Made by a program: the position numbers and the translations under genes. Shown here piece after piece: positions 7,647 through 63,575 of a DNA stretch of 64,000 nucleotides; position 1 is the stretch's first letter, and each line of letters begins with the position of its first letter. The notes under the pieces are model-generated. The model was not told where the DNA came from. It was given only the letters and a program-made list of their open reading frames with translations, and made no database searches. The stretch covers positions 4,330,714-4,394,713 of the forward strand of contig CP154954.1 in the NCBI GenBank assembly GCA_039621445.1. Reading direction: 5' to 3'. The stretch is from Euglena gracilis. Lineage: Eukaryota.

Positions 7647-8814
7647 ACCATTCAAAACCGCATTTGCCGTTCTTTTGAAACAAAAAAATTCTGAAACAGA
7701 CGAGTGTACAGACTAATGGTGGGCATATAAGCCCTTCAGCTGGTGGCATGCGCTGGAAAGCCAGAGTGCAGTCCAATTGGGTCGTCGATATCGAATTGCA
7801 AGTGGTGGGCAATCAGATGAGCACTTTGACAGGTTAGAGCCTTGGGTACAATTAAATTTGTGCAGCCTTTGGAGGCTTTGGCAAGGGGAGCCTGAGCAGA
7901 CATACACTTAGTGTGTTCACAAGGATGCTGGTGAACACATTTTTTTTTGGTGGACACAGGTGAACACAAAAAAATTTGGTGAACACAATAAAAAAAAACC
8001 TCAAAGATCGTTTGGCCCTAAACTTGAGCTGGCCGGACTTTTTTTCGGCCCATTTTGCAACCCCGAAAGCCAAAAATGCGTTACCGTCTAGCCGCCCTTC
8101 GGGCGGAGGCAAAAAAAAAAGTCAAAAGGCAAAGCTTTGCCGGCGGGGGGGGGGTTAACCTGGGGGCGGGGGTCCCACTTCCTTCGCCCCCCGGCTTCAT
8201 ATTTGGGCGGGAATTGAAGACCCTCAGAGGGTTTTATATTTGGGAAGGATATATATTTGGGGTGATCAAATTATTAAATGTGGCTTCTGTGACCTTCGGC
8301 GGCCTTCAATTGTGGCCGAACGCCGATTTTGTGTCAAATTTTCGGTGTTTTCTTCCTTATTCCCCCAAAAGTGTGCAATTATTGTGCAGATTGGGAACTG
8401 CGCATTGGGCAAAGCCCCCAAGAGGGAGGGTCCTGAAGTCAGGGGCAGGAGAGGAAAGGAGGAAGGGAGGCAAGAGTCCACGGAGGGGGTAAGGTGATAA
8501 GAAGCAGGCAAATTTTAGGCGTAAGGCAGCCACAGGTTAATACAGAAACAGTTTGAATGTGTGATTCTTGCCCACTCCCACTTTCTCCACTTACTCACCC
8601 ACCCACCCACCCACCCACTCACCCACACACCCACTTACTCACTTACTCACTCACACAAACACACACACACACACACATTATCTCTCCTTCTCTTCTGGAT
8701 CGGTGTTGCTGGGGAGAACTCCTTGGGGGGAACTCCTTGCCGACCCGAGAGTGTGTGCTTGTGGGGGAAATGTGTTGTCAGTCGGTGTGGGTGCGTGTGT
8801 TGTCAGTCTGTGTT

Positions 8815-8887
8815 GCGGTTTCGCCCCAGGCTGGCAGGTGGGGCATCGTCACGGGTGACGACCCTGCCAACCCTCGTCCCCGACCGC
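8815..8887 (-). ncRNA. Type III hammerhead ribozyme-like motif, copy 1 (C3G core variant)
   Basis: Minus strand: GCGG-UC / stem I GGGGACGA..UCGUCACCC / GUGACGAU / stem II GCCCCA..UGGGGC / GAAA-CCGC. Predicted cleavage between 8882 and 8881. Confidence 0.75.
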
Positions 8888-9322
8888 TCTTGTCTGGTGC
8901 AGACGGTTAAAAACGAGCTCTACGTCACCCTCCCGGGGGTGGGGGAGGGGGGTGGGGGGCTGAAAAAACCGGCCCCCAAAAACAAGGCAGCGCAGGACGG
9001 AAAAATGGCTCCGCCACCTACGGGACAGCACCCTTTGGGCTTTGGGGAGGGCGAGACAAGGCCCTTTCGGTGTGGAAAGCGGCAAAAATTGCCAAAAAAA
9101 ATACGGAACACACCCGAAGGCTTGGGGTGCGAGTACCCAAATTAAGCAGCCGGTCCTGGGGTCGCAGCACCAACCCCGGGGGGAGGGGGTGGCCTGAGCC
9201 GTCGGTTGCTCAGCAGAACCGTCGCGGGTTTAGCCCACAAAATGGGGCGCTGGGGGCATTGGGGTGCGAAACAACCGCGCCATGCAATTCTGGGAAAAAT
9301 GCCATGGAAAGCTCCATGGGAC

Positions 9323-9570
9323 CAGGGGTTTTTTTAAGACCGGGGGGGGGGAGGGGGGGTGGGGGGGCCCCGGGGGGGGAGGGGGTCCCGGGGGACCCAC
9401 AAAAAATGGCCGAAAAATCGCGAAAAGTGCCAAAAATAGAATTTTTTCGGCGCCTGCGGCGCCGAAAAGTATATCCCACCCCCCTGCGGGGGGGGGGGGG
9501 GGGCTCGGCCGGACCCCCCCACCCTACCCCCCCCTCCCCCCCCGGGGGTCCAAACTTAAAAAAATCCCTG
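9323..9570. mobile_element. hAT-like MITE inside the retrozyme-like spacer
   Basis: TIR CAGGGGTTTTTTTAAG / CTTAAAAAAATCCCTG; TSD CATGGGAC/CGTGGGAC. Confidence 0.85.
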
Positions 9571-9722
9571 CGTGGGACGCAGGGTCACTGCGTAAATCTC
9601 TCTTCTGGATCGGTGTTGCTGGGGGAACTCCTTGGGGGGAACTCCTCGCCGACCCGAGAGTGTGAGCTTGTGGGGAAGTGTGTTGTCAGTCGGTGTGGGT
9701 GCGTGTGCTGTCAGTCCGTGTT

Positions 9723-9795
9723 GCGGCTTCACCCCAGGCTGGCAGGTGGGGCATCGTCAGGGGTGACGACCCTGCCAACCCTCGTCCCCGACCGC
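9723..9795 (-). ncRNA. Type III hammerhead ribozyme-like motif, copy 2 (A15.1G variant)
   Basis: Minus strand: GCGG-UC / stem I / CUGACGAU / GCCCCA..UGGGGU / GAAG-CCGC. Predicted cleavage between 9790 and 9789. Confidence 0.75.
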
Positions 9796-9874
9796 TCTTG
9801 TTTGTTGGTTGCAGACCGTTACAAAAGAGCTCTGCGTCACCCTCCCGGGGGTGGGGGAGGGGGAGGCTGAAAAA

Positions 9875-10178
<304 letters not shown>

Positions 10179-12402
10179 TTTCAGAATTTTCATGCCATTG
10201 GCTGGCACTTTTCTTCCAGTTATTCCGTTTTATGAGGGTTTATTCCGGTTTTCGCTATTCCGGTATATTCCGGTTTATTACGGACCGGAATATCTCCCTG
10301 CCCCTGATTTCACTTTCCTTGCACCAAAAAATCAATGCACATTTCTCATAAAAACAATTTTGCAGTATTTTGCGGCATTTTCCAGGACTTTGTGAAAACT
10401 GCATGACTTTGCAGAATTTTGCAAAAAAAAGAAATCATTTTCTGAAAGATGGTGCAGGTGCTGGTGAAATGCTTATTTGGCATTGTTAGCCACTTTTTTA
10501 AACGAAAGAGGGTGGCAGAGAGCAAAGTGCGTGGAGAGCAATTATCACCCCCTTGACATGCATAATTGTTTTTGGGGGGTTGTGTGCGATTATTCATGAC
10601 TACTCGGTAATTTGTGATTTTGTATATTCCCAAATTTGTGCTGGTTCGTGATTATTCGTGATTACTCTGGCATAATTTGTGGAAATCTCAGGTACCTAAC
10701 TCATAAGAATACACATCTTCAATTGATTTTTTTTTCGGCTGAGGTCCAACAACTTTCATATTTTTTATTGTCTTCTTCCCCCGCACTTCTTGTTTATATT
10801 TGTTTTGATTTGTTTTGTTATATTCGCTCTCTGTGCTCATGCCATCTTCTGATTCTGGTGTGCAACAATCTGTGTCCCAAAGAACGAAACTGCAGAAAGT
10901 TGGGAGTAAGAAAACACAGCCGTCCAAACCTTCAAAGCTTCAGTTGCAAAAAGAGAAAAAGACAACATCGTTGTCCAAAAGAAAAAGCCCAATTCGTGAA
11001 ATTTCGTGACTTTCGTACCTGTCACCTAACAAATCCCCCCCTTGTCCTTGATACTCCAAAGAATGGGGAAAATGCAGTTGACACGGAGGGGGGGGGTGTC
11101 ATGGACACGCTGTGTCATGTGGACTGTACCATAAAAAAAGCATTTTTGTGTCATAGACCACCTATGTCAAGGTCAAGGGATTTCGACCTGGGAATCAGAA
11201 ACGGTGGCCGCCTTCGCGGAGGGGCACACTCCGTTACAACAAAGGCTGAAACAGGTGTTCTGTACAGGGCGCACGTATGGAAGGACCTGAGCCAGATGAC
11301 GCTCTGCAGAAACAAAACGTTAAAAGAAGGGGTTGAATACAAGAGAAAATGTGGCATGGATGATTTGTACATGCATATTTGAATTGATGGGTTGGCATAT
11401 GTTGCAAACTGGCAAACGGGAAAAAAAAGTGGTGGGGTATTGAATGGGTTAAATGCTTTTTTTCTTCCTGCGAGTGTGGAAGGAGGAAATATGAAATAAA
11501 ATCGAACCAGTGCCCCTGTGGTGGACATTTTAGATCCTCATTGATTACGCAGGCTGCTGGGACACCGAGCAATGTTGTCCTGAATAACACAAAATATCTG
11601 GTGCCTAAAGGTACATGCAGATCATCTGACTTCCATCCCTGAAAGCAGCACTGCTGGCAAAAACGATCATTATGAATTAAACAATCATCTACCTTGTAAA
11701 TAAATTCGCCAGAAATCCTGGGCCAGGGGGGTGGGGTATTTGGGAGGTTACAGCTCGGAAATTATTGTGAGATTTTGGGGCGAAAATTAAAAAATAAACA
11801 GCGAAAATTTTTCTTCCGGCGTGATGGGAAATGCATAAAAAAAATTCCTTCACCCTTTTCACGCTCATTTTAAGCATGGTGCCCACTTTGTGATGCTTGG
11901 GTATTTTCCACATGAAACTGTTTTCATTGCCCAGCGCAGCAAAGCCAAAAACTGGTCAGTGAAGGTCGCAACAAATCCAAAAATCCCCTCCTTTGGTGTT
12001 GTCAGGGGGAGATGTATTCCTCAGATCCTAAAAATGGCAGGTGAAATTTATTTGAGACAATCTTTCACACAACGAATTGAATTTGTCCTTTTTAAGGCAG
12101 GGACATCTGCGGGGTCAATCAGACGAACTGTTCAGTTGTGGTGACGCACAATGGACCAGGGACACTTCGCAATTGAGCCAATGAAAACATTCAGAGAAAT
12201 CAGCTGTCTGTTAAATTGATGTGCTGTGATTCCCCGCGGTAGAATACACTAAAGCAGGGCAAAGCAGTGAAGCCAAGAAATGGCGAAGGGCAAGGGACGA
12301 AACTCGATACCATTTCTGACCCCATCTGTGAATTATCAGTCTAAATGAAAAATAAATTATTGACAATACAAAAAAATACAAAAAGGTGAGGGGCGTCAGG
12401 TT

Positions 12403-17715: not shown

Positions 17716-18632
17716 TGGCTGCCAGAACCCTCCTCCCTTCAGAAAACTCGGTTTTGAGGTGGCTATTCACGGTGAGAAAAAGGACAATTTCTGATAACAA
17801 TCTGAAACCAGACAAAAAGTTGTTGGGATCGTCCAAGCGATGGCATGATCACAGCCTGGTGTTTCACAGGGGCATATAATGGATGGAAATGTTGCAATGC
17901 TGAATTGATGAGATTGCAGTTACAAGGGGGCTGGAATCAAACAGCAGAGTCATGGGTCATGGAGTGCAGATCAACTCCCAAAAAATGGAAGCAACCCTGC
18001 ATTATAAGCAATCACAAATGGGAGCAACCCCAAGGGCCGACATCAGACACCCAGACACTGATACTTTGTAATTTGTACTTTGTTCTTTGTACTTTGTCCT
18101 TTGTAAAATTTGACCAAAATCTGACAAAAATTTTGTAATTTTGTAAAAATTACAAACAATTTTAAGCATTCCATCAAAACACATACAGCCGACATAAACA
18201 TTTCAGTACAAATAACGTTGTTAAAAAAAATGTAAGAACTGAATGCAATTTTACCATTCTACGGGTGAGAAGGTTCTAGAGGTTCCGAAAAAAAAATGGC
18301 CCAAAAGTTTCCAAAGCGCCAAGGAAGAGCCAGTCACGCCCAGTCACGCCCAAGCACGCCCAGTCATTTAATGGGTGCTGGGCTTCAGGGAGGCTCCTCA
18401 GGTAACCAGGCCCACGGGGGATCCAAAAGTGACCAAAAATGAAGATTCCTAATTCTCTGGGACCCAGGTTTTTATTCTTTTCGGATTTGTAACATTGAAA
18501 CCCCTTTGTCTATGAACCTGTGTCCAGAAACAAAGACAAAGAGCAACTGCCAATAAAATTGTGTACACTCCAGGCAGTGAATGCTGAAGGCAGAAAACGT
18601 TAGAATATAGAGTGGGGTCCATAGGTTTGGTC

Positions 18633-18903
18633 CAGGCTTCTTTTTAAGACCCCCGGGGGGGGAGGGGGGGGGGCCACCCACCCAGGGTGGCGCGGGACCC
18701 CCCCCAGGGAGGGGACCCCCCCCAAAATCGGGCCCGTTAAAGGCAATTTTCAAAAATTTTCGGCGCTTCGCGCCGAAAAGGTATACCCAGCGCCTCTGGC
18801 GCGGGACCCCCCCCCCCCCCGCGGGGGGGGCCGGCCCGGACCCACCCACCCACCCCCCTCCCCCCGGGGGGGGGGCGGGTCAGGTGACTTAAAAAGAAGC
18901 CTG
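18633..18903. mobile_element. hAT-like MITE
   Basis: Perfect TIR CAGGCTTCTTTTTAAG / CTTAAAAAGAAGCCTG; perfect TSD GTTTGGTC; empty sites at ~15908 and ~24692. Confidence 0.92.
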
Positions 18904-28700: not shown

Positions 28701-31700
28701 AACCTCGCCAGCAGGTCGACTGCTTTGGGTTGAATGGTTAAGGGCTTTACTACAGAGTCCCTGAAGCGCTGGGCTTCCTGCTGGTGCCCCAAATGAGTTA
28801 ATTCCTAAGTGGGGATTTGCAATAAAAAAATACAAACAATAAAATAAACAAAAACAAAACAAAAAAAACAATAAAATAAAAACAAAAAAATAAAAAAACC
28901 TGATTTTTAAATGCATTCGGGTCAAACATTGACCTTTGATCATGTTGCTCTTGGGAAGGCCCAGTCAAAACATCACAACAGTTGGCTCACTCGAGCAGAC
29001 CGACCTGGCTGGAGAACGCAGGGGAGACTTTGACACGTTGTCCACAGAGGGCCATTGTGGCTCCTTGAACAAAGATTTCATGTGAACCTGATTCCTGTCC
29101 AATTCAACACGTTTGTGTTTGCATATGCTTGACCTCCCACATGTATAACATTCAAAAACATATATTACTCTGCATGTTTAGGAGCTGGAAATCAAGATGA
29201 AATATTTGATTGAAGGGTGCAAAATCTGACCTGTTGAAGACTTTCCACAGGTGGTTGAAACTGCCCAAATTGCTCACAACCTCACGTGGCTGACAACCTT
29301 CGACATAGACGAGAGGTAAGCATGCGCCAATGCTCATGGAAACAAGCAGCAACTTTTCTTCGTCTCCCCACAGAGGGGTAAAATAGGCAGGTGCTCAGGT
29401 TGAAATAATTTCAACATTGTTTCCCACCATCTCAGGACAGAAAATGTTCATGACCACAAAGAAGCGGAACAATGTAAGAAAGGCAGATGTCACGACTGCA
29501 ATCAACAATCACCCAGACAACTCGGACAGCCAACTGTCGTTGATGAGACTGCAGAATCTTGAGCAACAGCAGACAACTGTCATTCTACCATAAAAAAAAA
29601 GGCCGTAAACCTTGATGAAAGGTTTAAAGATGAAAGGCAGGTGAAGGGAGGGTCTGCATGCGAATCACACAACGATTGTGCACATATGGGGAGGAAGACT
29701 TATCCATGTCTGGGGGGGGAGTGTACGTCCCACCCCGGCTTTTCTACTTATGCTTTCCTCCTGAAAAGTCCGTGGGGGGAGTAACAATAAAATTTGCTTC
29801 CCTTTCCCCTTTTTATTGCAAAGCACAAAGGCAAAGAGAATTGGTGGGACCGCAGTCCCTTAGCGAAAGCTTAGCGACAGTAACTGGTTCCTAATTCAAG
29901 GTTACAGGGTTTGGTGCTTTGCAATTCTCTTTTAGAATTCTGAGGGCGAAGTCCCATTTGAACAGAAGTTTTATTTCTTTTTTTTACAAAGCTCGGAGGA
30001 GAAACACCACCACCCAAATGAGCAGGGCACAAAACCAAGCGGAAATTGCCTGCACGCCGCCTGGGCCGCCTTTGAACCCGTCCACTCCACCCGCACGTTG
30101 GCGCCGCAGGGGAGCATGAGGGAGGAGACCATTTTGAGCAAGAAGAGTTACTGTCGGAGAGGGAGCTGGGAGGGAGGCGGACGCACTGGAAGAAATCATT
30201 GATTTTTCAGCTCTCGTTTTTCATTGTTCAAAATTGAAAATATTTAAGGAAAATTAAAAAGTTTAAAATTCAATAAAAATAATAATAAAACATATTTTTT
30301 TTCATTTCTTCATTTTTTCATTTTTTGATTTCCTCATTTTTTTTTAGTTCCGTTCTGCACTTCATTCATGCACCACTCTGAACAACCCCCAGATGGTTCT
30401 GTTGGAGGACGTGCACGTGGGAAACATAACATTGTGTGATGGTGGAAGGGAACTGAATGCCGAGCAAGCACCTCTGGTCAGCCATGCCCTTGGGCCCAGC
30501 ATCGCCCAGCATCGCCCAGCATCGCCCAGCATCGCCCAGCATCGCCTTTGGAGCACTATACCTACAATGCCTGCTGCTTTTGCCGCTCCACCCCACTTTT
30601 GGCTACTTTTGGCCATCTTTGGTTGCTTTTTGACCATTTTGACCAATTTTGACTGCTTTTTGACCACTTTTGCCCATATTTGCTGCCTTTTGACCAATTT
30701 TGATTGCTTCTTGACCACTTTTGCTGCTTTTTGCCCACCTTTGCCCATTTCCAACCACCTTTGCAGCTTCTTGATCACTTTTGCTGCTTTTTGACCACTT
30801 TTGGCCCCTTTTGCCTGCTTTTTGACCACTTTTGACAACTTTTGTTGCTTTTCAACCACTTTTGCCCACGTTTGCTACTTTTTGCCCACTTTTGGCCATT
30901 GTTGCAGCTTTTTGATCGCTTTCATTTTTTTTGCCCACTTTTATTGCTTTTTGACCACCTTTGCCCACTTTGCCCACTTTTTTTACCACTTTTGCTGCTT
31001 TCTGACCACTTTTACCCCACTTTTGCCTGCTTTTTGACCACTTTTTGACCACTTTTGCTGCTTTTTGTCGGCACAGGATGTGGTGCAGGCCTGTGAGATG
31101 GCAACATCGAGTGCAAGTTGCAAGCCTCTTGCCGGTCAGACAAACAAAGTCCAAAACAGTTGTTGCGCTGGAGGGTGGAGGGAGATGCATCTTGTCCACC
31201 ATCTACACGTTGTCCAGTTTCTGCATCCAGTTCATCTTGTCCAGCATCGGCATCTTGTCCAGTGTCTTGTCCACCATCTACATGTTGTCCAGTGTCTGCA
31301 TCCAGTCCATCTTGTCCAGCATCGGCATCTTGTCCAGCATCTGCATCTTGTCCAGCATCTGCATCTTGTCCAGCATCGGCATCTTGTCCAGTACCTTGTC
31401 CACCATCTGCATTTTGTCGAGTGTCTGCATCCAGTTCATCTTGTCCAGCATCGGCATCTTGTCCAGTGTCTGCATCTAGTTCATCTTGTCCAGCATCTGC
31501 ATCTTGTCCACTATCTGCCCAGTATTCATCCGTTGGCTGCTGACCAAGCCAAAATAACCACAAAAGCCCAAAAAATGGCCACAAAAAGCCCAAAAGACCC
31601 CAAAAGGCCCCAAAAAGCAACCAAAATAACCAAAAATTGCCCAAAAACACCAACAATGTCCAAAAAAGATTGTGAAAAATGACCCAAAATCACCAAAAAA

Positions 31701-32059
31701 GTGCAAAATGGCCAAAAATGCATTAAAATCTGTCTAAAAATCTCTAAAAATATCTAAAAAATGCTTCAATTCTCCAAAATATACAAAAAAATGCCAGCAT
31801 CGCCCAGCATCCCCCAGCATCGCCCTGCATCGCCCAGCAACACCCTGCATCGGAACCCCACCTCTGGTCTCCAAAAATCCAGCATCGCCCAGCATCGCCC
31901 AGCATCGCCCTGCATCGCCCAGCATCGCCCAGCATCATCAGAGGTGCTTGATGCCGAGGCAAGAAACAGAATGCAGTTGCCGCACCGAAACCGCCCCCCC
32001 CCCCCCCCCTCCCACGCCCCACCCCCCCGCCCCCCCCCCCCCCCCCCCCCTCCCCCCCG

Positions 32060-32107
<48 letters not shown>

Positions 32108-32307
32108 CCTGGATGACCGATCTGTAAAAGAAAATATAACACTGTTAGGCAGAAAAACACTGTGGGAAAGGAAATCTTCCAACTGGAGGATGCTCTGCAG
32201 AGTCTGAAATGCCTGAGTGAGAGCTGCGGATCCAAAATGATGGAAAGCCCGGAAAAAAGGGGACTGCCGGGTCCAGTCCCCGGCAGTGGGGGGCGTGCAG
32301 AGCTCAT
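25712..32307 (-). CDS. Putative tandem-BRCT-domain protein with Ser/Pro-rich C-terminal region; 3' end not located
   Basis: Approximate exons: ~32215-32307 ([22 protein letters not shown]), ~30050-30148 ([22 protein letters not shown]), ~29515-29577, ~29281-29370, ~29005-29063 ([17 protein letters not shown]), ~28748-28777 (EAQRFRDSV), ~28535-28579 ([12 protein letters not shown]), 27775-~27810 ([11 protein letters not shown]). Then three in-phase GT-AG-bounded exons 27312-27446, 26823-26912, 25712-25942 (135, 90, 231 nt). The BRCT call is pattern recognition (LF.G....., GG.V) only. Confidence 0.5.
27520..27737. repeat. AT-rich TTTCTAAT tandem repeat
   Basis: Direct reading. Confidence 0.85.
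30490..31935. repeat. Composite tandem-repeat block
   Basis: (CATCGCCCAG)n at both ends, degenerate TTTTGACCACTTTTGCTGC repeats, and CATCTTGTCCAG-based ~18-bp repeats at 31188-31510. Confidence 0.85.
31991..32108. repeat. Poly-C tract (~118 nt)
   Basis: Direct reading. Confidence 0.95.
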
Positions 32308-34267: not shown

Positions 34268-37200
34268 TCATTTAAAGCCCAGGCGGAGGCTTCCATCGGC
34301 CTCAGAGCACTGTTGCGCACCTCGGTGGACTCTTCGCCGCGACCTGGAATGGAGCACTGTGGGGGGTTGCCACTGACAACGTGTCAACAGCAGCATAGAC
34401 AGCGATCGCCCACTGCATATCCAGGTTACAGTGAAGCACTCCTGGACATGGGGGACCAATGTGGTCGGACGCGACGAAAAGTTCAAAAGTTTCAGCCCCC
34501 GACTGGAACTAGGCCCGAGCTGAGGTGGATCCGAACCAGAATTTGGCACCAGAAATCGAAACTGCAAAAGTGGTCGAGAATCGCCAATTAAAATAAATAT
34601 TTTGACCCGAAAATTTGGCTGGCTAGCTGTTTCCTGCCCCCTTTTGCCAACTTCGATAGATGGGGGGGCTAGAGCTTGAAAAAGGTGGCTGGCTGGCTGG
34701 ACCCAACCCTGGGGATGGAGTTCCTGTCGGCTTCAGCAAATCCCTGTTTTGAGCCCGTTTGAAAAATCAAAAACCATTTGATAATCCCTCGTCCCTGAAA
34801 CGGTCTCCCTCATCGACGGGGGGCTGCCCACGAGAGGCCAACCCGCCTGCCGCCACCCCGGGCTGCGGTACGGTGCCCTGGACCAGCCGGACGACCTCCC
34901 CGTTCAGGTACGGGCTCTCCACCGCGACTTGCACCAGCGCCGCGAATTCCTCCGGCCGGCCGAGGCGCTTCGGGAATGGCACTGGACGCAGCAAATGGCC
35001 CGATGCTGGCTTTTGGGAAAACGTTGAGCGGTCAAGCAGACATCCTTCTCAAAAAAAAAAACGACACCCGGGTCTATTGTTTGGGCCGGTGCTCAACATC
35101 CTGGGGGTTCGTTTTTCCAGGTATTATATATGTATAATACTTATATATATGTGTAAGGAGAGAGGAGAGAGATTATATAGAGAGAGCGATAGAGGTGTTA
35201 TATATAATAATATATAGATCTAGATATATTATATAGATGATAATATATAGATAGAGATATATTGAGAGATAAGAGATATATATATATTATAATATATATA
35301 TATATATATATAGATATATATATAGATTTATATATATATATATATATATATAGTAATATATATATATATATATTATATATATATACATATTTGGATCTCC
35401 GGGGAAATTTTTCAGGAAAAAAAAGGTTAAAAAGTGCAAATTCTAACACAAATTAAATGGGCAAAAACAAAAAAGCCAAAAATGTCCCTTTGGGGCATTT
35501 TCACAACTTTAAGGGTTTAGCCTTCTCAATTCTTTCAAAAAATGCGGGGTGTCTTAATTAAATGACTTTGGTGTTTTGCTGAAAACTGAAGTGGGGCTGG
35601 AAATTTGGGTGTTTAGGGAAGGGAACTGCAACTGAACCCAGGGTGCACCAGCGAGGAAAAATACAATCCCAAATAAAATACCACATACATATATCTCACA
35701 ACTTCTTTCCTCGATTTGTTTTCACACGCAACAGAGATGACGGGGAAAGACTCAAAACAATCAATCACCATTACTGCATTTGTTTTCACCCCACCAACAC
35801 CCTTCTGAACAGCAAAAAGACTGTATGCACAATCAATTTTAAATGTGCTTTTGCCCATAAGGAATGGGAAAAATCACAAAATACTCGATCTTCGCTATGC
35901 ATACAGCCAAATTTACAAAGCCATCGTCTGGCCTGCTGGGCCAACACCTCCCGAGCCGCGGCGGGCACGGTCTCCGTCATCATCTGCGTCTCAAACATGC
36001 CGGGGGCGATCTGGAGGGGGGGGGGCGACGAAATTCATCCCAAAATTTTCGTAGGTCATATTGTGATCCCTACTCATTCGGCTTCGCAACTTTAAATAAA
36101 CACCCCAAATGTAACAGCCCCCCAAATAAAAAAAAAAATCCTCTGAGGACCTTGAAATCCCCCCCAAATATAAACCCCCCCCTCCGGCGCGAAGCGTGGG
36201 AAGGAAAGTTATATGACATAATATCTCCTCAAATTGTGATCCTTGGAAGATTTGGGAGCCCCCCAGATATAAACCCCCCGGTTTTATATTCGGAGGGAAA
36301 TTTCAAGACCCCCAGGGGCGTTTTATATTTTGGAGGGTTTTATATTCGGTCGGAAAAATCAACTTCTTGGCGGGATCCAGTAGTCGCTTTTCTTTTTAAT
36401 CACAGATACGCCCACCCTTGGGAGTCCGAACATTTCACTTTTAGGGCGAAGGAGCAAATTTCACATGTTTTTGGTAGGGGTTACGTCGCCGCATCAAGGC
36501 TACTCCAGAATTCCATCAACATGGCAAAATCGGAGAGTGGGTGGGGAGAAGTTTCTTGGGTGATTCGAAAATTACGGGGCATTTTGAATAAGTCCCGAAA
36601 AACGCAGGTTTTCCAATTGCTGCCACACCTCTTGCAAGATTTGAGCTTGGGGCCCACGTTTCAAAGGTGGCTACACTCGGGACGCCCATTGCAAAAGCCC
36701 TCCCCGTGCAGTGCAAAAGCCAGACCATGGCACACCAGACCATGACCTGAAAAGGCTTGGACTGCCCTATGGGGTTGCTCCCCCAAATCCAATGATCACT
36801 TTCCTGGGGGGAAGAAGCGGCCACAACCAGCAGAAGTGTAGACCTTAGTGGGGAGGGTCGCCCCCTTCAAAATCCGGTCACAAAAATATGCAAATGAAAA
36901 TTTTTCACTTTTTATTTCCTGGTTTGATGGGGAGGGATCAGGGGTTTTTTTTAGTCTTGGACCCCGTCCCCGGGGGGGAGGGGGGGTAAGGTGGACGGGT
37001 CTTGGACCTGGGCCTTGGACTCCCCTCCCCCCCCCCCTGGGGGCTGGGGGGGTGGGTATTGGGGCTGGTGGGTATTGGGGCTTTTTCGGGGCCGAATTAT
37101 TTTGGGGGCCCACCCCAGGGGGTGGGTGGGTGAGTGCTGACCCCCCCGGTCTTAAAAAAAAACCCTGGGAGGGATGTGACCTCTGCGCCTCAGGAGCTGC

Positions 37201-40200: not shown

Positions 40201-40733
40201 CCGGACCAGAATATCTCCCAGCCCCTGGTTCATCAAAAAAAAAAAAAAAGGGGTTGCAAATGCTTTTTAATTTGGATCCTAGTTCGATGTAGGGACGGCC
40301 CTTGGACTTCCCTTCGAAAAGAGACGTCTTATAATTTCTTGGATAATTTCCCTTGGAAAATAAACGCCTTAAAAACCAAAAAAAATACACTTTACGACGT
40401 AAAATATATATGTAAAATATATGTATATATACTTATCTATACATACATACATATATACATACATACATACCTACATACCTACATACCTACATACATACAT
40501 ACATACATACATACCTACCTACCTACCTACATACATACATACATACATACATACATACATACATACATACATACATACATACATACATACATACATACAT
40601 ACATTCATACATACATACATACATACATACATACATACATACATACATACATACATACATACATACATACATACATACATTCATACATACTTACATACAT
40701 ATGCAAACGCCTTAAAGATCTTAAAAAATAGAG

Positions 40734-40765
<32 letters not shown>

Positions 40766-43700
40766 CATACATTCATACATACATACATACATACATACAT
40801 ACATACATACATACATACATACATACATACATACATACATACATACATACATACATACATACATACATACATACATACATACATACATTCATACATACTT
40901 ACATACATATACAAACGCCTTAAAGATCTTAAAAAATAGAGTTTACGATTTTTTTAAAAAAAAAAACTCTCTTCCCAGCACCCTGCAGAGGCCCTGGCAG
41001 GTCCCGCGCCATGGGCAGCGTCAGGGCGGCCACGGCGCCCTTCGAGGCGGCGTACGCAGCCTGCCCGCTCTGCCCGTCGAAGGCGGCAATGGACGCAGTG
41101 TTGACCAGCACGCCACGCTGCCCCACAGCGTCCGGGGCAGTGGCCCGCATGCGGGCTGCGGCCAGCCGGCAGACGTTGAATGTGCCAGCCACGTTGACGG
41201 TGAGGACCTGCGAGTGGGGACGGGGGGAGGTCAACCTGTGGAACATGTGATGTGTGGGGTGCATGTGTCACGCATGACAGAGTTGCCACGTGTGGCACGT
41301 ACGGTGTGGAAGGTGTGGCACGTTTGGCAGGTGTGACTCATGAGGCACGCGTGGCAAATAATATACCCCTTCAACCAACCACTTGCTCTCGTAACCGAGA
41401 ACATTAAAAAAAAAACAATACTTTCAATTGCTCAAAATTTTATTCATAATCCATGCTCCTGTGATATGGTCGTGCAACGTTCCTGTGCAGTGAGTCGTTG
41501 AGGTGGGGGGAAATTCAAAACAACACAACCGGTAAAATAAACACCGGGGTTTTTTTCAGACCGGGGGGAGGGGGTACAAGGGATCCACCCCCCTACCCCC
41601 CCCCCCCCGGGGGGAGGGGTCCAAGACTAAAAAAAAACCCCTGACACCGACATATCGCCTAGGCAACGTCCTTCCTCTTTTTTATCTGGCAAAAAAACGA
41701 CAAGTTGATGGAAACTTTGTGGGTTGCCAGCAACTGTGGGTAACAAAGCAGCCACGCGCGTGGCGGACCTTCAAGAAATCATTGAGTTTGTGGGGCCCCT
41801 TCTTGCCCACCGTCTTGGAGGCCACCAGGATGCCCGCACAGTTGACTGCCACGTTGACCTCCGACTGAAAGGTGCGCTGGGCAAGGTCAGGGGACAGCCT
41901 GTCTCCGGGTGCTGGGAGTCCTGAGTGGAAGTCGACCATGTATCCCAGAGGACAGAGCAGGACTCTATGGGAAGGCCTGCTCCAGGAACGGACCCGCCCA
42001 CAAGATAACTGTTCAAACAAAAAAAATTCATTTCCAAAATGAAACAATGAGGTCGTTATGGGTTGGCTAACTCAGGACAGCCAGGCAGGCAGGAGGCGAG
42101 CTTTGCCACTCCACCACCCCATCCGAAACAACAGCCATTTGGAATCGTGGGGGTGTGCCCCAGCGGCGGCCTGCTTCAGCGCCGCCTCCACATCCGCCTC
42201 GGAGGTCACATCCACGGGAGCAAATGCCGCGTTGGGGCCGAGCTCCTGGTGTGAGGTGGGGACAGGGAAACAGAGGACACCACGGGTAGTGCCATGATAA
42301 CAAAAATGAATGTGCATGTGAGAGCGGAAACACGGAATGAATAAAAGGCCGGAAGGCCAGAAGACGTCGGTTTTCTTTTGTAAAAATACACAATGTTTCT
42401 TTGTGTCTGCCACAAGGACTCAAAAACCGAAATAAATGAAATGTCTGAATATGCATATATTTGGGTGACTCTTGGAGGCTATCCCTGCTAGCGTGCACCT
42501 CTAGGCACTTAGCATTTTGGCGGTGTTGCCTGAATTTGCCGGGATTTGTCGGGATTTGAAAAATGGTGGTGGGGTCCCAGCCACATGAGTAATGGCCACA
42601 TCTGGGTCACCTTTGGCTACTGTTGCCCAAAATTGTTGCCATGTTTGTCCATTTTTGACTCTTTCTGTCACTACTAAACCACTTTTGGCCACTCTTGGGT
42701 ACTTTTTTGCTATTGTTGATTGTTGTTATTCACTTTGCCAAACTTTCGGCCACGTTTTGCTGCCTTGGACTGCCTTCCACTTCTGCTGACTGTTGGCTAC
42801 TTTTTGCTGCGTATGGCTTCAAAAAAGCATAAAAAACATCTTGCAATGATGCTCTTTGCAAAAATTATTTGCATGTTTGCTTGGTATTTTGTTGGGATTT
42901 GTTGGGATTTGTCGGGATTTGTCAGGATCTGTCACTGGAGGTGCTTGCTGCTAGCAACCCCCCCCCCCGGCACGCCAGGTGGTCCACTGGTATTCCAAAT
43001 TTGAACTAGGTGCAGCCGAGCCCAGGAGCCCAGCCCCCCCACCAGAGGGGGGGGGGGGGTACTGCGAACCCTTAAGCCAAGGCTCACCCCTGATGAACGT
43101 TTGCCCCTCGTGCCACTGGCCAAAGCGTCACGAAGGGTCCCGGACCTGGGCCAACCGGGCGGCGCCGGACGACGGGAGGTCGGCCAGCACGACACGGGCG
43201 CCCTGCTCCACGAACCGCAGTGCGGTGGCCCGGCCGGGGGGCAGCCATCCCTTGCCACGGGGGGGGGGGGGGGGGCTGGTTGGGGGCCAAAGGCTGCCGA
43301 GAACGGGCAAATAATGACCCCAAGCGCCTGAAAGGGGGGAACACTGGTCAAAATTGCGTCAAAATGAACAGAAATGGCCCAAAGTTGGTATCACCGAATG
43401 GGTTGTGACCAGGGTGTCGCTTGGTGACACCCCGGGGGGGGGGGGGTCCAGCTCACAGGAAAAAATGGCCTGGCTGGAAAAAATTCTGTTTGCTGACCCC
43501 CCGTGGAGATCCCAGAGCTGAAACGGGGCCCAACCAAGGGTCGAACACCTAAAATGCCGAAAAGATGCAGAAAACTGCTTTTTGACCAAAAAAAAAGCCC
43601 TTGGCCCTGGCACATAACAAAATGATTTCGCCCGATTTCGCCCCTGGCACATAACAAAATGAATAAATAAAATAAAATAAAACTATATGACCTGGGGTGG

Positions 43701-44439: not shown

Positions 44440-47400
44440 CGGTGCCTAGCGGTGCAAGTGGTGCCAGCACTGCTCTTTTAGATATCCGATCTGATGATGC
44501 CATGGCGCAGCAGATGTTTGAAGCATCTGCCTACCAGGCCGACCTGGCGGCCCGGCCCGGCCCGGCCCAACGGCCTGGCTGCCCGCCCAGCCCAGGGGCA
44601 CAACCGGCCCTGGCAGTCTATGCCAGAGGGTTCCAGGGGCTTCTTTTACGTCGCCCAGTGATTTCGTTTGATTCCCGAACAGTTTGGAGAGATTTTGAAG
44701 TTTCGATTTTTTGACCCAAAGAATGGCCCCGAAAACGGCAAATCAAAATGGCCAAAAAAAAATGGGTGGGGCAGTTGAGGAAAAAGGAAAGAGTTGTTTG
44801 GACACTTCCTTCATTTTCGAGATTTGAAATTATTGGCTTTTGACAAAAAAAAAAAAGCGGCCCAAAAACACTGTTTGGGCCACAGACGACAGAGGCCCTC
44901 TAGGGGTACATTTGGTCTAATTCAGACTTCCGGAATAATATAATAATCCTACTTTTTTTCGAGATATTTTGAAAAATTTGGAGTTTTTACAAAAAAAAAT
45001 GGCCCGAAAAAAACCTCACAATAGCCGATTTGGGGGGCTATAGACTGCCTCCAGGGGAACATTTGGTCTGACCGACACTTCCGGAAACAACAGAAACAAA
45101 CGTTTACTCGAGATATTTTCGAAAAGTCTATTTTTTGACCGAAAATCCCACCCCGGCGAAATGGCAGAGTTGAAATTGGGGTTGGCGAATCCTGCCCAGT
45201 CTGGACCCCTTCGCGGGTGAACAACTCGGGCCCGGTGGGCAGTTGGGGGTCAAAAGGAGGTGATTCGGAAACTCGGGATCCAGTCGCTCGCGACTGAAAT
45301 AAAAAATTCTGGGAACGAGTCCCAGCCATGGTGATAATCCGTAGTCTTCATTACCTATCCAGGGGCGGAGTGCTTCTACCCCTCCTTTTCCCTGGTGATA
45401 AGCTTCGCTCTTACTTTGAAGAGAGAAGAAATCAGCTACCCCCTAATTGCTTGCCATCTATCCCTGCCCGCCCCCTGTGGGTTGGTGGGTGGGTTCCAAC
45501 CTCTGGCCATTCATTCCCAAAAGCTACCCCTTCCGCAAGGCTGGTGAAGCAAAACTGGGAGCACAGCGGGTGAGCCGATGGCCCAGGGCTGGTCGGGGAG
45601 GGCAAGCTGGCGGCCATCCCAGAGCCCCTGTGGGGGGACGGGGCAGCCACAACGTTGGCAGCCCGAGGCATCGGCACGCCTGGGGTCCCGTGGCAGCGGT
45701 GGCGGCAGGGCGGTCCTTGAAAAAAAATGTCTAAGAACAAACCTTTGCTCTCCCCGGGACGCTGGAAATCCAGAGCAAAAAGTGGTGGAAAACTGACAAA
45801 TTCTCGGCGAAAGCGGGAGACACGGGTGAAACCCCAAGAGCCGCCTGACAGCTTTGGACCATCGCCCTTGCACCAAAATCATTAAAAAAAGATGTTTTCG
45901 ACTTTCAATTTCGAGCCCGTTTGAGCCGGGCTAGCTGTTCAATGACGGTGCTCAAGGGTAGGTCCTTTAATTTAAAAAAAAAACACCACCTGGCCGGTCC
46001 TTTGAGGACCGTCGTGGGTGGGCCACTGGGCCACTGGGGCCAATGGGGTTAGGCAGGGCCGAGGGGGAGGTCGGTTGATGTGTGCTCTGGGGTGGGGGGA
46101 GGGGGGCGGGAAAAGGTGCCATTGGTGACGGGGCGGTATTTCCCCAACCCATAAAAGCTCAGGGATTCTGGCAGGGTTTAAAAATGATCGCCTCCTCGCC
46201 CCGTCTTCTGGTTCGGTGCCCTGACAAAAACTTCGGGGGCGTACGAGATTGCATTTACGGCTGACAACTACGCCGGGTATTTTTGTCTTCGTGAAGCGTG
46301 TGATGTTCCAAAGAAAGAATCCCTTTCCTGGGGCAGCGATTGCCATGAAGAGGGTCTGGCATTTAGATGCCAACCACACCAACCTCGTCCTGGACCACAC
46401 CAACCTCGTCCTGGACCACACCAACCTCGTCCTGGACCACACCAACCTCGTCCTGGACCACACCAACCTCGTCCTGGACCACACCAACCTCGTCCTGGAC
46501 CACACCAACCTCGTCCTGGACCACACCAACCTCGTCCTGGACCAGTTGGACGGGGGCTGGTTAACCCTGCTCATACAAACACTGGGGTGTGCTATCACAG
46601 CCCTGGGGAGAAGGGTGGCTTGGGTCAGAAAAAGAAAAGCAGGGGAAATTTGGTGTGTCTTGTTGGTGAAGCCGGGGAGGAGGAGAGAGCTGGGTTGGAT
46701 GAGAGCAGTGGCAACCGCTTGGCTTTGGGTGTGGTGAGATGGCTGGCAAAAAAAGGCAGAAACCACACAAAATCATTAGAGAGGATGGTTAGTTGGGTCA
46801 TAAGAAAAAAAATGAATAAATAAATGAATGAACGAATGAATAAATAAAAAATGGCAGAAAGAAATTGCATCCTCTCACCTTGAGAGTCCCCACCGTGTAG
46901 GGTCCATTTGTAAAACGATGCAGGGTCGTCGACCGCCTAACATTTTTAACCAGGGCTCCCAACTGTAATTTTCCTTTGGCCAACGCAACCAACACTTTGC
47001 CCCCCGGCCTCCTGAGCCGTGGATTGCATTCGTCACAAAGATGTGGTTAAGGTTTCAGTTAGCCGTCGGATTTGGGGTAAGATTTGGGGCTTAAACCTAA
47101 GGGACTAGAAAAAAAACACGAAGCAAAAATATGGAGGACTGAAAATGAATTCTTCAGGGAATGCAAAGCCAGTTGCTCAATTAAACAAGGGTCAGGGAGT
47201 GCAGCAGTCAGAAGGAAAATAAACAAATAGACAGGAGGAGGCCACAATGAAGTGAATGCTGCGGTACGCCAGCAAAATTCTTTGGGCGTGGGCAAAATGC
47301 AGGAGTGTAGGTGGCTTCCCGGAAATTGAGGCACGTCAAATAATGTGAACAACACCGCTTGCCAAAAACACATATCATCACCGCATCCCAGATCTAAGAA

Positions 47401-55021: not shown

Positions 55022-63575
<8,554 letters not shown>

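Follow-up and report, generated by a model that had tools for sequence, protein, structure and literature searches.

Retrozymes, the retroelements that carry hammerhead ribozymes, have so far been recognized as two kinds: those with long terminal repeats (LTRs) and type III hammerheads in plants, and those without LTRs and with type I hammerheads in animals. According to the accessible part of the plant report, the LTRs of plant retrozymes are 300–400 bp long and contain type III hammerheads, 4-bp target-site duplications (TSDs) are present, and a primer-binding site (PBS) for tRNA-Met and a polypurine tract (PPT) are held in common with Ty3/gypsy elements (PMC4918200). The animal non-LTR retrozymes are described, in the available sections of two papers, as having no LTR, PBS, or PPT (PMC7229834, PMC7761336). 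Penelope-like elements (PLEs) form pseudo-LTRs (pLTRs) through partial tandems; these elements are frequently 5'-truncated and favour microsatellites, including (CA)n; non-autonomous PLEs were formerly mistaken for LTR elements (PMC8557442, in part). A 2026 preprint, as far as its available text goes, derives the animal non-LTR retrozymes from PLE pLTRs (bioRxiv 10.64898/2026.07.22.740005). Here, we describe an element in a 64,000-nucleotide stretch of the Euglena gracilis genome (contig CP154954.1, positions 4,330,714 to 4,394,713; hereafter the window), which an initial annotation made from the sequence alone had interpreted as a retrozyme-like element with twin type III hammerheads in direct terminal repeats.

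Most probably, the locus is a copy, now decayed, of a family of non-autonomous retroelements that bear a hammerhead and are of the pseudo-LTR type, not of the plant LTR type. In its full form, the reading that we favour, although tentatively, is that of a very high-copy retroelement, neither coding nor autonomous, whose unit measures ~650 nt; this copy of it would be dead and present as a partial tandem whose pseudo-LTR contains a type III hammerhead. No report of natural hammerheads or retrozymes in the euglenids or Euglenozoa was found in a literature search; supplementary lists (for example, that of the algal hammerheads in PMC4918200) lie outside that search and may matter.

All coordinates are window positions, and the element is read on the minus strand. 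In that direction, a (CT)n-rich flank is followed by repeat B, 20 nt of spacer, a 256-nt insertion consisting of a miniature inverted-repeat transposable element (MITE) and one copy of its TSD, a further 358 nt of spacer, and repeat A, after which come a GA-rich tail of ~17 nt and a (TG)n/(TGGG)n tract. The features are listed below in this order.

9875–10180 (tracts 9879–10180), no strand: flank of (GA)n, (TA)n, and then inverted (TC)n (repeat search).
9599–9874, minus strand: repeat B, the upstream direct repeat, read as a pseudo-LTR, that is, the 3' part of a 5'-truncated unit (repeat search, alignment, blastn).
9723–9795, minus strand: hammerhead layout, copy B; core box CUGACGA intact, G at 15.1, U at 11.1; predicted cut at 9790/9789; no Rfam match.
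9579–9598, minus strand: first bases of the spacer, the 5' end of the unit if the locus is read as a partial tandem; in other copies, ~23 nt lead from 9321 to the repeat.
9323–9578, no strand: nested MITE plus one TSD copy (TGGGAC), 256 nt; terminal inverted repeats (TIRs) at ~9323–9367 and 9514–9570, with long G and C runs.
8965–9322, minus strand: non-coding spacer common to the family (contigs of sequencing runs X1 and X10 in all bins; no protein family).
8689–8964, minus strand: repeat A, the downstream direct repeat, with the GA-rich tail at its end (repeat search, alignment, blastn).
8815–8887, minus strand: hammerhead layout, copy A; G for C3 at 8852; predicted cut at 8882/8881; no Rfam match.
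8571–8688 (tract 8571–8680), no strand: flank of (CCCA)n/(CA)n together with the GA-rich tail of the element (repeat search).

In other words, the locus is a head-to-tail partial tandem of 1.4 units (repeat B, then spacer and repeat A) without LTR hallmarks. The direct repeats, for which ~280 bp had been estimated, measure 276 bp each (repeat search and blastn) and are 92.9% identical across 263–267 nt in blastn, a pairwise alignment having also been made. The repeat search resolves them into pieces of 136, 62, 55, and 41 nt with 83–95% identity and a start-to-start spacing of 908–912 nt. Each repeat starts with TTTTTCAG and ends with GAAGAGA. A third copy of the repeat is absent from the window according to blastn, in which the other 20 of the 23 rows are 64 nt or shorter and lead to the G/C-run parts of the MITE. 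The predicted cuts are 908 nt apart, or 652 nt apart once the MITE and one TSD are removed, and both figures of the initial annotation were thus reproduced; its (CA)n and (GA)n tracts on either side of the element were likewise borne out by the repeat search. The (GA)n tract (9892–10007) and the (TC)n tract (10039–10154) beside the element form a 116-nt inverted repeat, 86% complementary, with (TA)n at its centre.

In both repeats, the minus strand carries, in order, GCGG (the 5' strand of stem III), U, C, stem I, the core box, an extra U, stem II, GAA-N, and CCGC, with the cleavage triplet GUC directly 5' of helix I. Helix I has 8 bp, one bulged A, and a 12-nt loop, and helix II has 6 bp and a 10-nt loop, in both copies. 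Helix III is open and consists of 4 bp plus the 15.1-16.1 pair, 5 bp in total, which makes the layout type III and not type I. Both copies have a single additional U after A9. Copy A retains an unaltered GAAA box and the pairs G10.1-C11.1 and A15.1-U16.1, and its only core flaw is the G at C3; copy B appears in the descriptor scan discussed below with one core mismatch, stems of 8/6/4, and a 1-nt insert. C3 is essential for hammerheads and A15.1-U16.1 is strongly preferred, so neither copy is expected to cut well. Because the core is changed in both hammerheads, the release of a monomer from this copy of the element is not expected. The motif as it was first written is a composite, and no single copy holds all of it: the minus-strand layout stands in both repeats, whereas the whole motif is found in neither copy, and the hammerhead fold is not the one of minimum energy.

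The family was followed in public sequencing runs by aligning 8689–9321, at a likeness of 85%, to DNA contigs (Logan) of X1 and of X10, which carries a second organism label, and to the raw RNA-seq reads of X23 and X24. Parts of repeat A occur in 20 of the 24 run rows listed, from 16 studies, and at least half of its words are found in four rows. The matching contig pieces number 2759 in X1 and 1120 in X10, with a depth of up to 624,000 in X1, although summed word depth from contigs is not copy number. The element is a very high-copy family, present under two organism labels. At 8852, the C3 letter that copy A has lost accounts for 99.3% of the depth in X1 (378,612/381,251; 80 contigs) and 98.1% in X10 (37,513/38,237; 58 contigs), and is carried by all 22 of the 22 RNA reads that cover the position. 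At 8819 and 8823, in bins covered at 494,000–624,000, there is no majority change among the variants listed, where such a change would have stood near the top; among the same variants, the family majority agrees with copy A at 15.1-16.1, at 10.1-11.1, and at the GAA positions. The family majority holds a complete core, with all 13 fixed hammerhead positions and helices of 8, 6, and 5 bp. Therefore, what is defective in copies A and B reflects decay private to them.

The order of the parts is also found outside this locus. In other copies, contigs and two RNA reads contain joints from 9321 to the repeat start (8689/8692) via ~23 nt; therefore, the MITE is a private insertion at this locus, and spacer followed by repeat is an order that the family shares. 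The repeat end elsewhere runs into GA-rich sequence, with loose ends at 8712/8716 (19 + 17 contigs in X1 and 14 + 14 in X10). The depth over the 3' portion of the repeat is three to five times that over its 5' portion and over the spacer (270,000–624,000 across 8711–8886 versus 81,000–154,000 upstream). Since there is no protein family, the order repeat-spacer-repeat recurs elsewhere, and the copy number is high, the family fits a retrozyme-like element. The depth drops from ~379,000 to 94,000 at 8887 (bins 8865–8886 and 8887–8908), within a few bases of the predicted cut. This step was not counted as copies starting at the cut, because a private 4-nt deletion of copy A clips contigs at 8896.

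The initial annotation had seen no convincing open reading frame (ORF) in the spacer. Two open frames do exist over the element, on the plus strand (8561–9145 and 9070–9870), and the second crosses the later-inserted MITE; what holds is that no Pfam match was obtained for any of the 10 window ORFs scanned (all at least 194 aa), these two included. The idea of a coding element was dropped for this reason and because no Y/F-x-D-D motif lies in an open frame longer than 8 aa. A tRNA-derived short interspersed element was rejected as well, since no tRNA was found in 8000–10600, and other Rfam RNA classes were dropped because they gave only noise in the element (E 0.12–8, all far below gathering).

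How readily could such a motif arise by chance? The descriptor tolerated one core mismatch at most, up to one base inserted ahead of helix II, and one bulge in helix I, and it required helices of 6/5/4 bp or longer. A scan of both strands of the window gave two matches, both in the repeats, and the same descriptor gave none in two sets of random first-order Markov sequence, 16 Mb modelled on the window and 16 Mb on the GC-rich repeats. With helices relaxed to 4/3/3, this random sequence yielded 19 and 9 matches in which one core position deviated, and matches with an exact core were absent. The extrapolated chance rate of an exact-core motif of the observed quality is ~1 per 10^11 bases, and ~0.3 motifs of this quality are extrapolated for a scan of ~16 Gb. 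A chance origin is unlikely: negligible for the window, small for one genome, and not quite nil for a scan of many thousands of windows.

True LTRs typically have TG..CA ends. At this locus, the repeat ends are not TG..CA, no PBS starting with TGG is present in the 33 nt after repeat B, and no PPT precedes repeat A, where the 30 nt contain only a G5 run. A 4-bp TSD is not discernible; the flanks are different microsatellites, with no 4-mer in common at the borders. The absence of PBS, PPT, and TG..CA ends, the microsatellite flanks, the lack of a discernible TSD, the GA-rich tail, and the deeper, although confounded, 3' part together lead us to favour a pseudo-LTR/non-LTR mode.

When compared with the plant LTR retrozymes, as the available text of Cervera, Urbina & de la Pena (2016; PMC4918200) presents them, the element is alike in having a type III hammerhead in two repeats of ~300 bp around a non-coding centre, and its cut-to-cut length of ~650 nt falls in their class of 600–1000 nt. 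It differs in lacking the hallmarks just named, in its GA-rich tail and microsatellite flanks, and in a copy number far above the tens to hundreds per plant genome given there. Its hammerhead also has longer helices, an extra U, and no Rfam match, and there is no circular RNA signal. With the metazoan non-LTR retrozymes and non-autonomous PLEs, it shares the head-to-tail partial tandem and the absence of LTR hallmarks (PMC7229834, PMC8557442). Unlike this element, however, the metazoan elements, in the portions of those papers available, have type I hammerheads that are often minimal and dimeric, whereas the hammerhead here is type III with a stable 5-bp helix III; they are 150–450 nt long with a GC content below 50%, whereas the unit here has 652 nt and a GC content of 61%.

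The cycle of cleavage, circle formation, and mobilization by a foreign enzyme that we infer for this family is as follows. The element would have been inserted as a partial tandem of greater than unit length, with a 5'-truncated unit (repeat B) placed head-to-tail before a full unit (spacer plus repeat A), and its “terminal repeats” would not be a true LTR but a pseudo-LTR of the Penelope-like/non-LTR sort. The type III hammerhead, with long helices I and II and the extra U before helix II, would sit in the repeated 3' portion of the unit. Read-through or multimeric transcripts of the minus strand would be cut after GUC in each repeat, which would release a unit RNA of ~652 nt with 5'-OH and 2',3'-cyclic phosphate ends, and a host tRNA ligase may then close this RNA into a circle. 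The enzyme of an autonomous element would reverse-transcribe it more than once round, or along a multimer, to give partial-tandem DNA copies. In the present copy, the cycle would be broken by the G for C3 in copy A, by G15.1 and U11.1 in copy B, and by the MITE inside the spacer. For the long helices, the extra U, and the loop pairing, active hammerheads offer precedents: in the accessible parts of the two reports, an extra U between A9 and G10.1 raised the cleavage of CChMVd constructs 3–4 fold (PMC3705267), and type III hammerheads with longer helices and Watson-Crick pseudoknots that join loop 1 to loop 2 are described (PMC7936874).

A number of results weigh against the reading of the locus as a dead member of such a family, and they are considered here together with the alternatives on which they bear. 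No reverse transcriptase was seen in the window, either in the Pfam scan or in the search for Y/F-x-D-D. The known hammerheads of non-LTR retrozymes and PLEs are type I, not type III, at least in the parts of PMC7229834 and PMC7761336 drawn on here. The RNA-seq sample consisted of 12.9 million records each from X23 and X24 (~5 in 100 of each run), and it contained 69 and 60 element reads, respectively, from both strands and at a depth of ~10 or less. Most of them lie only partly on the element (57/69 and 57/60), and 81–92% continue into unlike sequence. The initial annotation had expected circular RNA and named transcripts ending at the predicted site as a test; these were looked for in both runs, in which there is no pile of read starts or ends at the predicted cut or anywhere else on the element, and the sparse, mostly chimeric reads lend no support to circle production. 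Abundant unit-length or circular RNA is therefore unsupported, and the library type may exclude such RNA. The junction of a circle would lie inside the repeat and therefore reads the same as genomic DNA. The depth step described above does not help, with 50 contigs clipped at 8896 in X1 and 31 in X10, and with many private changes in the upstream part of copy A that confound it further. Finally, the fold of the 652-nt monomer is unremarkable (z = -1.1 circular and -1.5 linear; 58–59% paired; GC 61%), and the idea of a viroid-like rod was dropped on these z values.

Ten RNA reads (seven in X24 and three in X23) hold only the 36 nt of 8843–8878, between unrelated but highly consistent flanks. 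This is a family fragment embedded in some expressed transcript.

The RNA data bring up the first alternative, namely that a genuine hammerhead does no more than trim the linear transcripts of the retroelement and define a 5' end, a task that ribozymes perform in some non-LTR elements, with no circles and no RNA-to-RNA or rolling-circle step. Neither run contains a circle-specific or abundant RNA signal, the monomer is neither rod-like nor unusually stable, and the role proposed for PLE hammerheads, in the available text, is the cleavage of tandem precursor RNAs (PMC8557442). Coverage that is deeper downstream of the cut site would also suit templates beginning at the cut, although mapping breaks confound the depth step. 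Against this alternative, the libraries may have undergone poly(A) selection, in which case circles would be missed, only a small part of each run was sampled, and the plant and animal twin hammerheads examined all gave circles in the parts of the two studies available (PMC4918200, PMC7229834). We regard trimming without circles as rather unlikely.

The second alternative arises from folding. The hammerhead fold has -28.4 and -26.2 kcal/mol in the two copies, versus -37.4 and -37.3 kcal/mol for a rival structure, an 18-bp hairpin at 8828–8873 (minus strand) that also forms in copy B. This hairpin is 9–11 kcal/mol more stable and is both the minimum free energy (MFE) and the centroid structure. 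It brings together loop 1 and loop 2 (a 10-bp duplex of -19.9 kcal/mol, within a complementarity of 10–11 nt) and joins the core box to the 3' strand of helix I. Prefix folds have helix I as the best structure at 38 nt and the rival hairpin ahead by nt 63, at a point where stems II and III still lack their 3' strands and the hammerhead cannot yet be completed. Judged from the folding model, the long hairpin could be a switch, a trap, or a real structure in its own right. The nearest counterparts of the hammerhead layout are the atypical type III hammerheads of HDV-like circular RNAs from toad and termite and the Drosophila pseudoobscura motif (PMC7936874), which are alike in their 6-bp helix II, long helix I, and Watson-Crick complementarity of loops 1 and 2. 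In contrast with what the available part of that work describes, the complementarity here amounts to 10–11 bp, which is too long to form alongside both closed helices and drives the competing hairpin.

The initial annotation had suggested a check of the minus strand with the Rfam hammerhead models; no hammerhead family reached the gathering score in the window, and neither copy was matched even at E ≤ 10, on 8500–10000 or on 91-nt stretches round each copy. These models were run on the two decayed copies, and the miss may be due to their long helices and large loops, to the extra U, and to one core change in each of them. Apart from 8852, no motif variant of at least 8% is among the variants listed, and this conservation may reflect only the youth of the family. 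Between copy A and the majority, 1 of 73 positions differs within the motif and 7 of 203 elsewhere in the repeat; the two rates are not significantly different and give no sign of selection.

According to this second alternative, the hammerhead likeness would be a by-product or a long-dead relic in an ordinary interspersed repeat, in which the hairpin is real and the RNA never self-cleaves. It draws on the hairpin as MFE and centroid (-37.4 kcal/mol), formed first in the prefix folds, on the missing Rfam match, and on a look-elsewhere effect that is not nil, given ~0.3 chance motifs of such quality over ~16 Gb. A hairpin by-product, however, would need another three helices, together with the GAAA box and the U-H cut site, all in register, and the 32 Mb of random sequence contained no match even with one mismatch allowed. 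The family majority, moreover, removes the core defect of copy A and adds none. Viroid and retrozyme hammerheads, too, usually have stable inactive alternative folds. We consider a by-product or relic improbable, to about the same degree as trimming alone.

The likeness to plant LTR retrozymes drawn in the initial annotation leads to a third alternative, in which the repeats are true LTRs and a Ty3/gypsy element mobilizes the unit via PBS and PPT. The repeats of 276 bp, the type III hammerheads, the non-coding centre, and the 652-nt length match the plant size classes in the accessible part of PMC4918200, and Ty3-like elements are reported from E. gracilis (10.64898/2026.05.21.726589, in its available part). 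Nevertheless, the TGG-starting PBS, the polypurine run, the TG..CA ends, and the 4-bp TSD are all missing, and the GA-rich tail and the uneven depth along the repeat do not fit either, so that this origin seems very unlikely. Of the non-autonomous, ribozyme-bearing retroelement originally proposed, the part that finds support is that an element of ~650 nt, repeated and non-coding, has a hammerhead layout in each of its direct repeats, whereas its assignment to the LTR type and its circles are not supported. Least probable of all, and by a wide distance from the first two alternatives, is a 1.4-unit fragment of a DNA-level tandem satellite with a unit of ~650 bp: the head-to-tail arrangement and very high copy number would suit it, and animal hammerheads were first seen in satellite repeats (PMC7229834, in part), but the locus comprises just 1.4 units flanked by unrelated microsatellites, the 64 kb contain no other unit, and the repeat end elsewhere mostly runs into GA-rich sequence and not into spacer.

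It is possible, though doubtful, that the element belongs to an active and extremely abundant retrozyme family beyond the plants and animals, in a euglenid, which would combine plant traits with animal/PLE traits and a switch-gated ribozyme. In such a family, the plant traits would be the monomeric type III hammerhead and the unit of ~650 nt; the animal/PLE traits would be the partial tandems with their pseudo-LTRs, the microsatellite targets, and the absence of PBS and PPT. The switch would consist of the 10–11 nt complementarity of the loops together with an alternative partner for helix I's 3' strand, by which the RNA might pass between a cutting fold and a locked hairpin. If true, a type III hammerhead in a high-copy protist family of the pseudo-LTR type would widen the known range of retrozymes and blur their division into two kinds, which bears on the origins of viroid-like RNAs and of ribozyme-bearing retroelements. 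A family of this abundance would make up a visible share of the genome and would merit a name in its repeat library. Should the motif lack cleavage activity, what is left is simply an abundant repeat that has a stable hairpin.

Some minor observations on the distribution of the motif and on the rest of the window should be mentioned. Exact-pattern scans with motif stretches of 24–25 nt gave no matches in metagenome contigs and none in viral contigs. Three soil and leaf-litter metatranscriptomes (X18–X20) contain a share of 0.12–0.16 of the words of repeat A, which may be low-complexity words only, and three runs labelled “RNA?” contain 0.24–0.32 of them; these small shares were not used as evidence of habitat or expression. 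The nested MITE represents a MITE-like family whose TIRs consist of T/A runs and then long G or C runs, with TGGGAC as its TSD. Short pieces related to it were found by blastn at 18629–18872, 31994–32109, 36939–37168, 41543–41640, 58065–58108, and 61020–61219, so that it is a repeat family in its own right. As a whole, the window looks like repeat-rich, non-coding eukaryotic DNA. Its long open frames at 40403–41333, 45975–46820, and 31015–31689 are translated short tandem repeats, with the units HTYI, SRTRLVW/HQPRPGP, and DADAGQ, respectively.

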